Of a stretch of 64,000 nt of DNA, positions 38,760 through 54,833 are shown piece after piece. The notes below the pieces were generated by a model that saw nothing but the letters and a program-made list of their open reading frames with translations, had not been told where the DNA came from and did no database searches. Source of the stretch: Eledone cirrhosa (Eukaryota); NCBI GenBank assembly GCA_964016885.1, contig OZ024741.1, positions 220,782,001 to 220,846,000 on the forward strand. The letters run 5' to 3'. The translations under genes and the position numbers were made by a program. Position 1 is the first letter of the stretch, and each line of letters begins with the position of its first letter.

Positions 38760-38975
38760 GAGTAAATATGTTTTGAAACAGTGAACAGGTTTGAAATTAG
38801 AAAATAGAATAGCTTTCACCGTATTTTTTTACTAAAGAAATTTTAGTCTGATAATGGGGTTTGGAACCCTCAGATAAATGGAAAAAGATGAGTATTGACG
38901 TATGTCAATACTCATCTTTTTCCATTTATCTGAGGGTTCTAAACCCCATTATCAGATTAAAATTTCTTTAGTCAA
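38760..38975. mobile_element. Family D fold-back element in (TA)n
   Basis: Arms centred on gagtattgac-gtat-gtcaatactc. Confidence 0.82.
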
Positions 38976-39029
38976 AATATATATATATATATATATATAT
39001 ATATATATATATATATAGTTTAACGTTTG

Positions 39030-39067
39030 TTTTTGTACGTTTCGGGTGTTAGCCCTTCATCAGAAAA
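39030..39067 (-). ncRNA. Minimal hammerhead motif at the end of a repeat abutting (TA)n
   Basis: Minus strand: tttt-CTGATGA-AGGG CTAACA CCC-GAAA-CG-TA-caaaa. Confidence 0.6.
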
Positions 39068-40244
39068 TAGCATGATAATTATGAGAATAAGAAAGATTAG
39101 CGAGAGTGAAAAGAGGAAGATACGGAAAAATATTTTTTGTCGGGAGAGAAATCACGTGTATGTGTATGTTTAGTTAGAAATGTATGTTTAGAGATGGGTG
39201 AGTGTATATATATGTGTGCGTGTGTGTCTGTGTGTGTTTAGAGATATGTGAGTGTATGTATATATCTGTGTGTATGTGTGTGTTTGCAAAATCATTGTTG
39301 CAGCATACGAAAATAGTTAAGTTAGAAAATATATCATTGTGAGACGTTAATCGATTGTCGTGCCGTTACACATCAATAAAGTGAAACAGATTTGACTGGA
39401 TGACACATAAGTTAATTATGTATACACAAAACATATTGTAGATACAATAAATAAATGTTTTATTCTTCTTTTATTATACAATCCATATATATGCCATTAG
39501 CCACAACAACTTGTTACTGGCAAAGTATTGAAATCTCTAAAATCTCTCGTTTATTTTATGAATTCTGATAATTGAATATTTCGGTTATTTGCATAATAAT
39601 TTTAATCACACGGGATTCACATTTAAGAGGAATTAAATTAGTTGCTAGTTGTTTGTGTTATACTTGTTGATGGTGTTTAACCCAAATCATTCCTGGTTTA
39701 GCAGACCTAAATCCACACTATTTCATACATTTTCATCAGATTAATAAAAATAATCGTATGCTCATGTGCAGAGATGCTATAAAATAGTTTATAAAATAGC
39801 GTGAGGTCCCTTAAAGACAGGAAAAGAAGTTTCTATCGGCCGCTATGAGGAATCGAACCTTGTATCTCTTGGCTATCAGCTGTCTATTTCCAATTCGTAA
39901 GGAACGAAGGGCTACATCAGCTAACATTAGTGGAGACTTGACAGCTGTTTCTAACAAATCGATCCATCACACGGATGACTCCTCTTTCGGACGTGTGAAT
40001 GTAGTATATTTGTAGTAGTAGTAGTTATAATTCATGATGTTATTTAACAGAAATCAGCCTCGAGGGAGATTCTGTTGTTATTTATAGGAGGTCGAGCTAC
40101 CATGAAGAGGCTCCATTAAGTTCGTATATGCCGCTCACGAGCAGTAGGTATACTAGGTGATCTTACAAGTTTTTAAATGTGGTACTTATGAGAGATAGGC
40201 GGGAAAAGTAAAGTAATTTTGGATCATTAGAACATCTGACTGAT

Positions 40245-40600
40245 AAAATAACAAGTCAGTCAATCATATTGGTGGCCTCCCCACAGCCCCGGTGGACAGA
40301 ATGGAGAAAGTGTTTCCCCGGGGGACGGCAAGGGAGACGCGCTGGAAAAGCCTTTTTCAGCTCGCGTGGCTCACACCTGTGGCTGGCCAGCTCAGTGCCT
40401 ATGGTGGTGAGTAGGGAGGTAGCCCTAAAACCGAGGACACCAGAAATCTCCACTGCGAAGGGTACGACCGCAAACCTGTCGGAGAGCGACCAGTACTTGG
40501 AGAGTTTGGCCTCCTCAGCCCGACGTGCAGAAGAACCTGGGTTAGTCGCAGACTGCACCAGGTTGCGGCTGGAGAAATGTGATTGTCGCAGCATACCATT
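40245..40600 (-). pseudogene. CRE-clade-like RLE non-LTR retrotransposon 3' fragment
   Basis: GSSARRAEEAKLSKY...FAVVPFAVEISGVLGFRATSLL fits the AxxAExxKxxKY...PxAxExxGxxG RLE tail. Confidence 0.68.
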
Positions 40601-40613
40601 TCTCCTCCTTACA

Positions 40614-41115
40614 ATACAGGGTGACTTAAAGGAAACTCTTTATTTAAAATAGTTAATAATTTATTAATTATTGGTCGACTTTTATAAAACATTTTGAACA
40701 GTATAATGGTAGAAGTACAGTATAGTATTAAAATTGTACATAGGCACCAATGTTTTCCACCTGTGTTTGTAATCGAATGGATGTATCCTCGACTGACTTC
40801 ATTAGGAACTCAGGTGGTATGTTGGTCAGAGTATGACGAATGCGTTCCTCCAATTGAGTCAAAGAATTGTTTTGAACTATATACTTCTTCCTTCGCCCAG
40901 CCCCACAGCAAAAGATCTCCTGGCATTAAGTCAGGGCTTCTTGCTGTCCATTCATGTGGACCTAGATGACTCAACCGATGTCCAGGAAATTGGACACCAA
41001 GGCACTTATGGACAGTGCGTGCCAAATGAGGCCATTGATGTTGTTCTATGTGGTCACAGTAAACGAAACGTTATAAGTAATTTTCAATAGGAAGTTTCTT
41101 TCCAGCCACCCTGTA
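40614..41115 (-). mobile_element. Internally deleted Tc1/mariner-superfamily transposon
   Basis: TA-flanked TIRs tacagggtgacttaaaggaaact / agtttctttccagccaccctgta. Transposase remnant WTARSPDLMPGDLLLWGWAKEEVY. Confidence 0.8.
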
Positions 41116-41250
41116 TATGTTGCCGCATGAATTTTAACGATGTTGGTTGATGCAAGGTACAGTGTGACATGATGGTGATGGTGATGGTGATGGTAATGGT
41201 GATAGTTTTTAATGGTAACTAGAAGAAGGATTGGGCGTAGGAGGAGGGGT

Positions 41251-51931: not shown

Positions 51932-53340
51932 TATAGATTATAAATACTTCGGAAAGTCAATTTTTGGCGATGTCTGCAGGAACTAAATATTTCTTTTTTT
52001 AGGTTGATAGAGTGAGTATATAAAAAATGTCTTCAATACACAAATGACAGATTCTTGAGAGAGCCATATTTCGGTATGCGGGTGCTTTCGAAATCGTTCC
52101 CCAAGAGATTGAATAGTCAATATTATTGTCTTTTAAGTGCCAAATTAGATGTGAAAGTGATATAGAAAGTTTTTATCAGACCTATTAAATGTATGGTTAT
52201 GATTATACCAGCGGTCTTTAAATTTTGTAGAAGTGGCTCCTATATAGTTATTTTATTTTATGTCTAGTTTTAACTGTGCATTTGTATACTAAGTTTTTAT
52301 CTAGGCAATTATTCTGTAAAGGGCGATTAGGTTCATTTCTACAGTTACATTTACGAGAGTTAGTGTTACTAGGAACGGTTCTATTATTACTAGTATTAAT
52401 AGTGTTGTTAGTAATATTAATATTGTTATCTTGGTTTAATTGGTTTAGGTTTAAATTTAAGTTTCTATTAGTAATTCTATTTATATTTTGTGCTTTCATG
52501 GTAGTAGAGTAAGATAGTTTTATAGTATGTCTGATAAAAATAGAGTGATATCTGTGGGATTTAGGAAAACATTTATCTAATGCTTTGAAAAATAGTTTTG
52601 CTACAGGTCTTTTAACCCCTAATGAGAATAGGGGAGAGTACCATATAATATGGTTCTTTTGTTTGGTTTACTATTTAAGTTAAATTGTTTATTACTATTA
52701 TTATAGTGAATTTTAGGAAGATTTTGCATGTTATTGTTATATATGTATTTAATGTTATTCATATAGCCAGCTCTATGTAAAGCATCATTGTAATATTCTG
52801 TCTTCTTATCAAAAATATTTTTATTAGCTGAAATGCGTGAAATTCGTTGCTAGACACTATTGACAATAGTATTTTTTATATTACTAGGATGGTTAGAATG
52901 GAAGCTTACGTAATTTAGGTTTTCATTAATTTTATGGAAAGGATAATATAGTCCTGAGCTAAGGTTTAAAGTTACATCTAAGAAGTTAACAGTTTTATTA
53001 TTATTCTCGATTTCTAATTTAAGGTTGTAATTATTGAAAAATTCTATGATAGATTTCTTTTTCCTGTTAAGTTCACTACTGCTATGGTTTTCGAATAAAA
53101 GTAACAGATCGTTGTGATATAAACATCCGGTCATTTCTGGCATTTTCCTGTGTAGTACATTAAGAATAAATAATCCAACGAGGTCTGTTACTTGAGCTGA
53201 GTTCGATGATCCCATAGTGATATAAAAGTTATTCTGTCTATCAGCCCTTGTCCAGAGGTGGTTATTAAATTCGATTAGGGTTTCACGTGCTGTTAGAATT
53301 ATATTTATTTCATCACTAGATAGGTCTGTATATTTATAAA
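51932..53340 (-). pseudogene. PLE reverse transcriptase plus GIY-YIG endonuclease (frameshifted)
   Basis: MGSSNSAQVTDLVGL, YHNDLL (decayed YxDD), VNFLDVTL, SNHP, CNCRNEPNRPLQNNCL (CxCx5Cx5C-type linker), LVYKCTV, YIGATSTKFKDRWYNH, CHLCIE, SSCRH. Confidence 0.88.
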
Positions 53341-53524
53341 GTATCCTAATAATTATTTATATTTACCTAGCGTCTAAATATAACGATTCTTTCAGTCTAC
53401 GCTTCTACTTCATTTGCATATCCATCCTAAAGATTTGAAATTGTTCTCTTTTTCTTTCACTATCCTTATGGAACCGATAAGGTCTGGTTTATCGGGTATA
53501 TCACTATTTATAAAACAAATTTTG

Positions 53525-53587
53525 TATTTTATCTGATGAGAGCGTACCAAAGTTTTTTGGTACCCTTGAAATATATATAATAAAATA
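53525..53587 (+). ncRNA. Type I hammerhead ribozyme (family E)
   Basis: TATTTTAT-CTGATGA-[GAGCGTACCAAA..TTTGGTACCCTT]-GAAA-TATATA-TA-ATAAAATA. Perfect 8-bp stem I. Confidence 0.85.
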
Positions 53588-53964
53588 AATGTGGTTTTAT
53601 AAATATAGTTTCCATTTATTAATATCATTGATATTATACTCCAGCAAACCTGTACAGTGCTTCGAATCTGTTATAATAAATCATTTTGTTGAATTACCAG
53701 CAAATTAAATATCTCTTTGCTTATATATATATATATACATAGAGAGGGAAAGATAGGTAGCATCCCGACCACGGCACCAAATGGTCGGTATTTTAACTAT
53801 CTCTATGCCTACTCTACATCATTCCATGCATTGAGTACTACCATGATTATTGTCCTTCCCGGTCCCATATATATATATATATATATATATACATATATAC
53901 ATATATAAATATATATATATATATATATACATATATATATATATATATATATATATATATATAT

Positions 53965-54505
53965 AACGGAGGAAATGTGGTAAGGAACCAGGTGGACCAT
54001 AACGCACCAAAGTACTCAATACTTAGGGTAGTAGAGTGGGTAATAGGAACGAGTAGGACCCCGACGGCTGAGCTCAAGCTGTTTCGACGGCTAATTCTGG
54101 ACTAAATGAAAATTTTTATCCTGGTATTTGAATAGCCGAGCTTCTCAAGGGGTAATTCCATATATGGTAAAAGTGATTGTCACAAGGATTGGTAAAAAGT
54201 TTGTTGTTGAGACATAATAATTCTATCATGGCAATTTGTGGAGGGAGGGGGTAGCTGAACCTGCCAGTAGATGAAGGTGGGAGAGGGGGTGGAGGAGACC
54301 CAGTCATGCGTTGATAGTGCCAACTTCAGCTGGGCAGAGGTCAAAGAAGATACTAGGGAGGGGGGGAAGTATCACTTTTACCATATATGGAATTACCCCT
54401 TGAGAAGCTCGGCTATTCAAATACCAGGATAAAAATTTTCATTTAGTCCAGAATTAGCCGTCGAAACGGCTTGAGCTCAGCTGTCGGGGTCCTACTCGTT
54501 CCTAT
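53965..54505. mobile_element. Family A fold-back PLE terminus, longest copy, with two hammerheads (54058-54153 -, 54395-54490 +)
   Basis: ~135-bp arms (54043-54177 vs 54371-54505). Core ACCCC-TTGAGAA-G...GAAA...GTC-GGGGT. Confidence 0.85.
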
Positions 54506-54544
54506 ATATATATATATATATATATATATATATATATATATATA

Positions 54545-54833
54545 TAAAGTAAATATGTTTTGAAACAGTGAGCAGGTTTGAAATTAAAAAAATAGAATAG
54601 CTTTCACCGTATTTTCTTTACTAAAGAAATGTTAGTCTGATAATGGGGTTTAGAACCCTCAGATAAATGGAAAAAGATGAGTATTGTACGTCAATACTCA
54701 TCTTTTTCCATTTATCTGAGGGTTCTAAACCCCATTATCAGACTAACATTTCTTTAGTAAAGAAAATACGGTGAAAGCTATTCTATTTTTTTAATTTCAA
54801 ACCTGCTCACTGTTTCAAAACATATTTACTTTA
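54545..54833. mobile_element. Family D near-perfect ~290-bp palindrome in (TA)n
   Basis: Arms appear identical by eye around the centre gagtattg-tacgt-caatactc. Confidence 0.88.

Follow-up and report, generated by a model that had tools for sequence, protein, structure and literature searches.

This study concerns family D, a tRNA-headed repeat found in three copies within a 64,000 nt stretch of the Eledone cirrhosa genome (assembly GCA_964016885.1, contig OZ024741.1, positions 220,782,001 to 220,846,000 of the forward strand), which is referred to below as the window and in which positions are counted from the first letter. The explanation that we prefer, at a rough probability of 0.45, is that D is copied by a Penelope-like retrotransposon and that its headless fold-back copies turn at 27976-27985 by way of a self-complementary, TA-like word, rather than at a tRNA cut. 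D is likely to be a multi-copy, non-coding, tRNA-headed, non-autonomous repeat of the Penelope-like element (PLE) type, a junction hotspot within the family is probable, and we lean towards sequence over structure as the cause of the shared turning point.

Fold-back copies of family D and their turning site

All three D copies in the window are fold-backs, with two different turning sites among them, and all three read outward from the centre in the tRNA sense, that is, head to head (Table 1). Alternating (TA)n sequence borders five of the six outer ends, and one arm is longer than the other in two of the three copies. Copy 1 forms a hairpin of 36 exact pairs around a 4-nt loop (inner arm ends 38899/38904), with a right arm about 66 nt shorter than the left, 3 differences in 74 nt between the arms and (TA)n on both outer sides. 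Copy 2 has equal arms that are identical over 140/140 nt, a 5-nt loop (inner arm ends 54686/54692) and, again, (TA)n on both sides. The long copy bears the tRNA-like head in both arms, which begin 5-6 nt before G1, the 5' end of the tRNA; its right arm is about 46 nt longer, its paired part spans 27909-28067, other repeat sequence lies beyond its right end, and alignment of the arms gave 150 identities, 7 mismatches and 4 gap columns. Palindromes as long as those of copies 1 and 2 are not chance. A miniature inverted-repeat transposable element, i.e. a DNA transposon, was rejected for D, as the outer ends are unlike in two of the three copies and the centres vary, so that fixed terminal inverted repeats and a uniform length are lacking.

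Two smaller observations concern the origin of individual arms. The short arm of copy 1 (38977 region) ends in a variant with C plus a short A-run that is common in sequencing reads and the long arm carries a long A-run, and the two arms may derive from different templates. In the loop of the long copy (27899-27908), 7 of the 10 letters match, in reverse complement, a segment of the D trailer, and this loop may be a templated insertion or a remnant of the leader.

Table 1. Features of family D and two control fold-backs, in window coordinates
Feature	Position	Strand	Details
tRNA-like head	27914-27984	+	ARAGORN (anticodon label GGA) and Rfam RF00005, 48 bits against a cut-off of 29; short variable loop
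Second tRNA-like head, inverted and more decayed	27823-27893	-	From arm alignment; no ARAGORN or Rfam call
Junction word	27974-27982	+	Spans 3' foot of T-stem and 3' strand of acceptor; centres of copies 1 and 2 map here
Trailer after discriminator	27985-28002	+	T-run of 4 in this copy (T4) and of 5 (T5) in most reads and copies 1 and 2; leader is complementary (by eye)
D long copy, fold-back with tRNA-like head in both arms	27734-28113	.	Left arm 27734-27898, 10-nt loop, right arm 27909-28113
D copy 1, headless fold-back	38761-38978	.	Left arm 38761-38899 (outward on -), loop 38900-38903, right arm 38904-38978
D copy 2, headless fold-back	54547-54831	.	Left arm 54547-54686, loop 54687-54691, right arm 54692-54831
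Control: head-to-head fold-back coding C-terminal part of GIY-YIG-like PLE nuclease, no tRNA	33498-35320	.	Outward-reading arms
Control: family G fold-back, no tRNA	57850-58262	.	Hammerhead-type core in both outward-reading arms (descriptor)

Copies 1 and 2 align to the tRNA-bearing unit (27909-28113) from 27976-27983 onward at about 90% identity, and their centres fall within 27976-27985, the 3' acceptor strand of the head. An earlier sequence-only reading had placed both palindromes at the 3' edge of the cloverleaf, and its coordinates, its letters and this mapping were all correct. It had also let both right arms start at GTAYGTCA; the position holds, and the start in copy 2 is ambiguous, as the first G there serves at the same time as the final paired base of the left arm. 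The ambiguity amounts to 2 nt in copy 2 (left arm 27983-27985, right arm 27976-27978) and 4 nt in copy 1 (GTAC, 27977-27980), and copy 1 can be described as a symmetric join on GTAC with one mismatch. The junction word is the longest run of alternating purines and pyrimidines in the 205-nt D unit (9 nt, 27974-27982, centred on GTAC), it ties for the best match of the unit to (TA)n (6/8), and 27975-27982 is the sole 8-nt self-complementary word of the unit, with its centre at the turning point of copy 1. Such a palindrome is not unusual by itself, arising somewhere in the unit in 63% of 5000 shuffles. Under a uniform model, two centres lie no more than 10 nt apart 11.6% of the time and both fall in one pre-named 10-nt box 0.33% of the time, which makes the co-location suggestive, not decisive, for two copies.

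Further evidence came from sequencing runs of other samples. Seven runs were listed, with no RNA run among them, and four were aligned to one D arm (X1 and X2, which are one sample; X4, a second organism; and X5, raw restriction-site-associated DNA (RAD) reads). Matches to the unit numbered 1820, 1978 and 394 contigs and 1985 RAD reads, with the head covered in all four runs, and these counts indicate that D is a multi-copy family. The strand-switch joints listed for raw reads were 27989/27989 (20 reads, 4 starts), 27989/27999 (5 reads, 3 starts) and 27954/28009 (3 reads, 2 starts), so that 25 of the 28 reads point to a centre just upstream of 27989, as in copies 1 and 2. These joints do not give the exact base, because the first two lie at breaks caused by a deletion by which the reference differs from the family, and the RAD reads may stem from one to few loci. 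The contig joints listed sit elsewhere (27909 or 27915 with 27999 or 28071; 27952 with 27989; one contig each). Upstream of 27989, loose ends were seen in at least 202 reads of X5, at least 32 contigs of X1 and at least 26 contigs of X2 among the matches listed, which cover these three runs, and their majority line keeps D letters back to about 27975 and then passes into (TA)n or AT-rich letters. These sequences suggest un-inverted D copies that begin at the same word. The claim of the earlier reading that turning at this site is repeated thus gains from the other samples, which suggest that the same site recurs, with the reservation that few loci may be behind it; a hotspot at the level of the family is likely.

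The same runs gave some details that stand apart from the turning site. Read ends past 28113 pass into AT-rich letters, and tandem-type joins (unit end back to 27909, with the intervening letters unread) occur in one contig each of X1 and X2. Peaks of read ends at 28038 and 28081 were rejected as biological ends and taken as library cut sites, as they fall at AATT words. A joint of depth 574 from 27963 to 27917 in X4 may mark a segment of the tRNA-like head arranged in tandem. Exact D probes against metagenome contigs and viral contigs found 0 loci.

That copies 1 and 2 are separate insertions is supported by their different flanks and by the identical arms of copy 2. The outer flanks are unrelated, which excluded a segmental duplication, or one duplicated insertion, and the arm lengths are unlike. 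Over about 140 nt, the alignment of copies 1 and 2 contains 4 mismatches and 2 gap columns, either copy differs from the left arm of the head-bearing copy by 3 mismatches in 87-89 nt, and the arms of copy 2 carry in common changes that are absent from copy 1. From the letters of these arms, copy 2 would have had one template or undergone later homogenization. The sequence-only reading had argued for separate events from the unlike spacers, and this particular argument fails: a single base, a CpG change, separates the centre of copy 1 from its symmetric form, and the latter, minus 3 nt, equals the copy 2 centre. The flanks, arm lengths and private changes of copy 2 uphold its conclusion. Each of the two copies adjoins an element of family E, at different E ends, in keeping with the insertion of PLEs next to PLEs described in passages of PMC6765202.

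Under the explanation that we prefer, a PLE nuclease would nick (TA)n and the PLE reverse transcriptase would copy the D RNA from its 3' end, often stopping early. The cDNA end would then be fixed by annealing of 2-4 nt, either to its own strand, giving a fold-back, or to the (TA)n target, giving a plain truncated copy, and the junction word could serve both routes. To arrive at the present spacers, copy 1 would have undergone one CpG change, and copy 2 would either have lost 3 nt or have been joined over a 2-nt microhomology. A sequence cause is favoured because copy 1 is a clean GTAC join and one word covers both the fold-backs and the starts against (TA)n; because family G, which lacks a tRNA, also has a common start; and because a reverse transcriptase would meet a stronger hairpin before the T-arm in a unit that folds no better than its shuffles.

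Several results weigh against this explanation. The G at 27981 is the family majority (58812/60660 depth in X1; 482/523 and 248/283 reads in X5), so that only the 4 nt of GTAC remain as a Watson-Crick palindrome, next to a G.T pair. The unit contains six further self-complementary words of 4-6 nt, and the three window copies make use of none of them. The position is equally the T-stem foot, so that a structural pause predicts the same site. Most other fold-backs in the window have loops of 6-19 nt or longer and are not joins on palindromic words. The PLE partner of D is deduced from geometry only: comparison of D with the 3' regions of nine PLE-type neighbours (18 comparisons) found no similarity beyond chance (best p 0.03), and a hammerhead core sought in D with a type I descriptor and Rfam gave no match.

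The tRNA-like head and competing explanations

The single tRNA called in the window by both ARAGORN and Rfam is the plus-strand head of the long D copy. tRNA-Ser carries a long variable arm along with a serine anticodon, and a functional tRNA-Ser gene was rejected on a variable loop of only 4 nt in the Rfam alignment; we read the feature as the tRNA-derived head of a repeat. A T5 run that lies about 10 nt past the discriminator in copies 1 and 2, the left arm of the long copy and most reads would end a plain RNA polymerase III (Pol III) transcript before the D body, and the template is therefore likely to be read-through or Pol II RNA. A common leader of at least 18 nt precedes 27909 in all four runs (25, 33 and 15 contigs; 314 reads); it is present in most genomic D copies and missing from all three in the window. 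D thus departs from a short interspersed nuclear element (SINE) in two features, a start at or just before the tRNA 5' end, which the leader precedes, and a terminator-free stretch between head and tail, which the T5 run interrupts. Its outer ends abut (TA)n, which hides any target-site duplication and could be either tail or target.

Aligned by eye, the leader and the trailer (27987-28002) form 19 pairs that extend the acceptor stem, three of them non-standard and all three G.U on the tRNA strand, and this complementarity suggests an RNA fold in the D source copies. Neighbouring hammerhead-bearing repeats likewise have long closing stems. A degenerate hammerhead, in which leader and trailer would pair like stem I, was rejected for D, as the core is without A9 and out of register and stem II is missing. 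Among common variants in the reads, each taken singly with linkage unread, G27919A, A27981G and U at loop position 33 keep pairing, and G27964A and G27925C break stems. In run X4, 27941 and 27953 are altered at similar depth, as is 27948, two of the three lying across one anticodon-stem pair.

These features bear on a possible, if somewhat unlikely, account in which the D RNA adopts a cloverleaf fold with an extended stem, the PLE reverse transcriptase pauses at the T-stem foot and the stalled cDNA then either changes strand or becomes joined to the target. The foot of the GC-rich T-stem is at 27975-27976, the right arms of copies 1 and 2 start at 27976-27978, and the loose-end majorities in three runs leave D at about 27975, the last base before three G-C pairs; the 25 of 28 raw reads described above, the pair-keeping variants and the leader-trailer complementarity also fit, and the T-arm is the most stable arm of the cloverleaf (-5.2 kcal/mol). 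However, a stronger hairpin (-7.0 kcal/mol) lies downstream of the T-arm and, like the leader-trailer stem, would be met first by the reverse transcriptase. Shuffled sequences fold as well as the window unit (z 0.16), and the cloverleaf pair probability of the unit does not exceed 0.13; this is weak evidence, as tRNAs need modifications and the copy was folded without its leader. The stem-breaking variants, the common start of family G, the read joints at breaks of the reference and the contig joints located elsewhere also count against a pause. The earlier proposal that copying stops where the tRNA fold begins does not survive in that form, as with the leader-trailer stem the fold already begins about 20 nt downstream of the junctions. 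A pause could still be compatible with the junctions if it took place at the T-arm. The fuller picture of D as a tRNA-headed, SINE-like family moved by a PLE and not by a long interspersed nuclear element (LINE), with the cloverleaf on its 19-pair stem and a T-arm pause triggering the strand switch, we regard as unlikely.

It is improbable that copies 1 and 2 began as long fold-backs like 27734-28113 and later lost the tRNA part by deletion between facing GTAC words. A self-complementary word within an inverted repeat is also a direct repeat, and such a deletion gives the copy 1 centre exactly, as a 2-nt join gives that of copy 2; the full-length type of precursor is present in the window, and passages of PMC7467729 describe hairpin-driven rearrangement hotspots in yeast. 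Nevertheless, un-inverted starts at the same word against (TA)n would be left unexplained, a symmetric deletion leaves a perfect palindrome, so that no instability is removed, and the identical arms of copy 2 suggest a young copy with little time for such a loss. About as slim is the prospect that one or few headless master copies starting at the junction word were amplified, with the centre inherited and not repeated. The 3-nt relation between the two centres would suit this history, the common start of family G resembles the end of a master, and contig depth in X1 peaks at 249,987 over the body against 181,580 over the head, a rough measure; yet the similarity between copies 1 and 2 does not exceed that of either to the left arm of the head-bearing copy, no diagnostic change private to the two was found, and the arms of copy 2 share changes absent from copy 1.

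Cleavage of the RNA by tRNA-processing nucleases (RNase P on the 5' side of G1, RNase Z behind the discriminator) or a stop of reverse transcriptase at m1A58 is a very improbable source of the junctions: the left arm of copy 2 can be read from 27985, the first base past the discriminator, at one extreme of its 2-nt ambiguity, but three of the four inner arm starts contradict it, both right arms keep 7-10 nt of tRNA where a trailer released by RNase Z would hold none, the long copy starts 5-6 nt before G1 where RNase P would give G1 itself, and an m1A58 stop would start copies at about 27970, all by positions from the Rfam alignment and the textbook specificities of these enzymes. The suggestion of the sequence-only reading that the RNA is cut at the tRNA edge is likewise unsupported.

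Neighbouring fold-backs and Penelope-like sequences

The window contains 22 local inverted matches, of which 12 were examined (3 D, 9 not D); the remaining 10 are pairs of separate copies, parts of another match or nested structures (25307-26652, 25914-26125). Nine of the 12 fold-backs examined have no tRNA, and (TA)n borders at least one side of all 10 whose ends were inspected (16 of 20 ends by eye). Fold-backs are the expected structure of PLEs and occur in these tRNA-less neighbours, so that folding back as such tells nothing in particular about the tRNA; with the common start of the tRNA-less family G, this leaves the earlier use of the fold-back as a pointer to a folded or processed tRNA unsupported.

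One control fold-back (33498-35320) has pieces that resemble the open reading frame (ORF) at 35997-36815 (E 6e-12 and 9e-12), the Atlas neighbours of which include a GIY-YIG cluster (23% of members, score 0.95). An Atlas search with the 34290 piece of the same fold-back gave no usable match, and Pfam returned 0 families for 5/5 PLE-like ORF pieces. PLE-type ORF fragments lie at 35997-36818 (+), 51900-53356 (-) and 33498-35320, with, by eye, a C-terminal GIY-YIG-like domain after a Cys motif, in a Neptune-like layout.

The other control belongs to family G, which occurs at 12884-13041, 17225-17389, 25964-26128 and 57850-58262 as short, non-coding copies with a canonical hammerhead-type core and (TA)n flanks, 98-99% alike except that at 12884. 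Three of five other matches to family G begin at one same base, at an AT-alternating word, whereas starts of family E are spread; the 5' start of G is common to monomers and fold-backs. A type I hammerhead descriptor matched 11 places, in families F and G and in three others; the five shuffles gave 0-1 matches each. Rfam made no hammerhead call on family G, for which the label comes from the descriptor. At E<=5, Rfam gave microsatellite and hairpin noise on the window, among 150 of 337 matches listed.

Family E forms fold-backs at 16733-16940, 18456-18757, 38540-38720 and 53966-54505 with an 80-nt one-sided tail, and one copy folds back without any loop (16792/16793). By eye its layout is hammerhead-like, with U3 and A8 instead of C3 and G8, and was missed by the descriptor. 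A 13-nt likeness of D to the family E tail was rejected as chance (p 0.33 for that orientation). In family F (18807-19068, 25307-26652, 30873-31114) the hammerhead-type core reads toward the centre and the arms stand tail to tail, opposite to D, E and G; a family G copy in (TA)n lies between arms at 25770-26201. Two more hammerhead-type cores, at 33100-33250 (-) and 53500-53610 (+), are closed by AT-rich stems of about 25-45 pairs, and the former copy begins after (TA)n exactly at the foot of its closing stem. Furthermore, the window holds a near-intact LINE ORF2 in two frames at 21583-24721 (+), with endonuclease PF14529 (520 aa) and reverse transcriptase PF00078 (530 aa), and a large nested inverted repeat at 58577-61343 (outer arms 88%, inner arms 93%, 260-nt loop).

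Significance and comparison with known systems

The origin of inverted PLE copies is stated as unresolved in passages of PMC8557442. With a passenger that is short and abundant, has a known fold and turns at a junction hotspot, PLE inversion would become testable by counting junctions in one genome, and, if the T-arm pause were true, D would hold thousands of natural records of how such inversions form. A tRNA-headed repeat on PLE machinery without a hammerhead would widen the known pairs of SINEs and partners. Should microhomology or a single master copy be all that lies behind the hotspot, the finding would amount to a detail in the annotation of repeats. Within a partial literature search, no paper on a tRNA-headed, PLE-inverted repeat was found, and D may already be catalogued in Repbase, Dfam or SINEBase.

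Among systems already described, cephalopod genomes are rich in both tRNA-derived SINEs and PLEs, according to passages of PMC13282606, PMC8967140 and PMC6962438, which describe no D-like fold-backs. The cephalopod tRNA-derived SINEs (tRNA-Core, tRNA-Deu; passages of PMC8967140 and PMC13282606) share with D a tRNA-derived head with A- and B-box-like arms, a short body and many copies, whereas D has a conserved leader, a T5 run just after the head and fold-back insertions; this separation was made on descriptions, not on consensus sequences. Non-LTR retrozymes, in the passages concerned of bioRxiv 10.64898/2026.07.22.740005, are likewise short non-coding units thought to borrow PLE machinery, but form tandem units with a type I hammerhead, whereas D has no core and tandem joins in only 2 contigs.

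The nearest described case is Sm-alpha of Schistosoma, derived from tRNA-Gln and carrying a hammerhead (passages of PMC2770079 and PMC6765202). Sm-alpha and Sj-alpha resemble D, as far as these passages go, in being short, multi-copy and non-coding, with a tRNA-derived head, PLE-associated traits and unit ends able to pair. Sm-alpha differs in its active hammerhead and tandem arrays, where D has no hammerhead core and forms fold-backs here, and the passages of the two papers describe no inverted Sm-alpha copies.

PLE insertions are described in passages of PMC8557442 as lacking their 5' part, frequently accompanied by a neighbouring inverted copy that is likewise 5'-truncated, extended by 30-40 bp on one side and preferentially located in (TA)n, and elements with an inverted pseudo-long terminal repeat (pLTR) include non-autonomous ones; short non-autonomous Penelope elements are also mentioned in a passage of PMC6685494. 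The pLTR of PLEs carries a hammerhead ribozyme, which is absent in the Naiad clade. D differs from PLEs in having no ORF, no hammerhead core, no 3' end found to be shared with a PLE of the window and a tRNA-like head, and in extensions of 46-66 nt, with equal arms in copy 2, against 30-40 bp. The likeness lies in the head-to-head truncated inversion, the one extended arm and the (TA)n flanks, alongside PLE-type coding fragments and hammerhead-type cores in the repeats that neighbour D. Taken together, D would behave, by geometry and target, like a non-autonomous passenger of PLEs and is a candidate member of that group.

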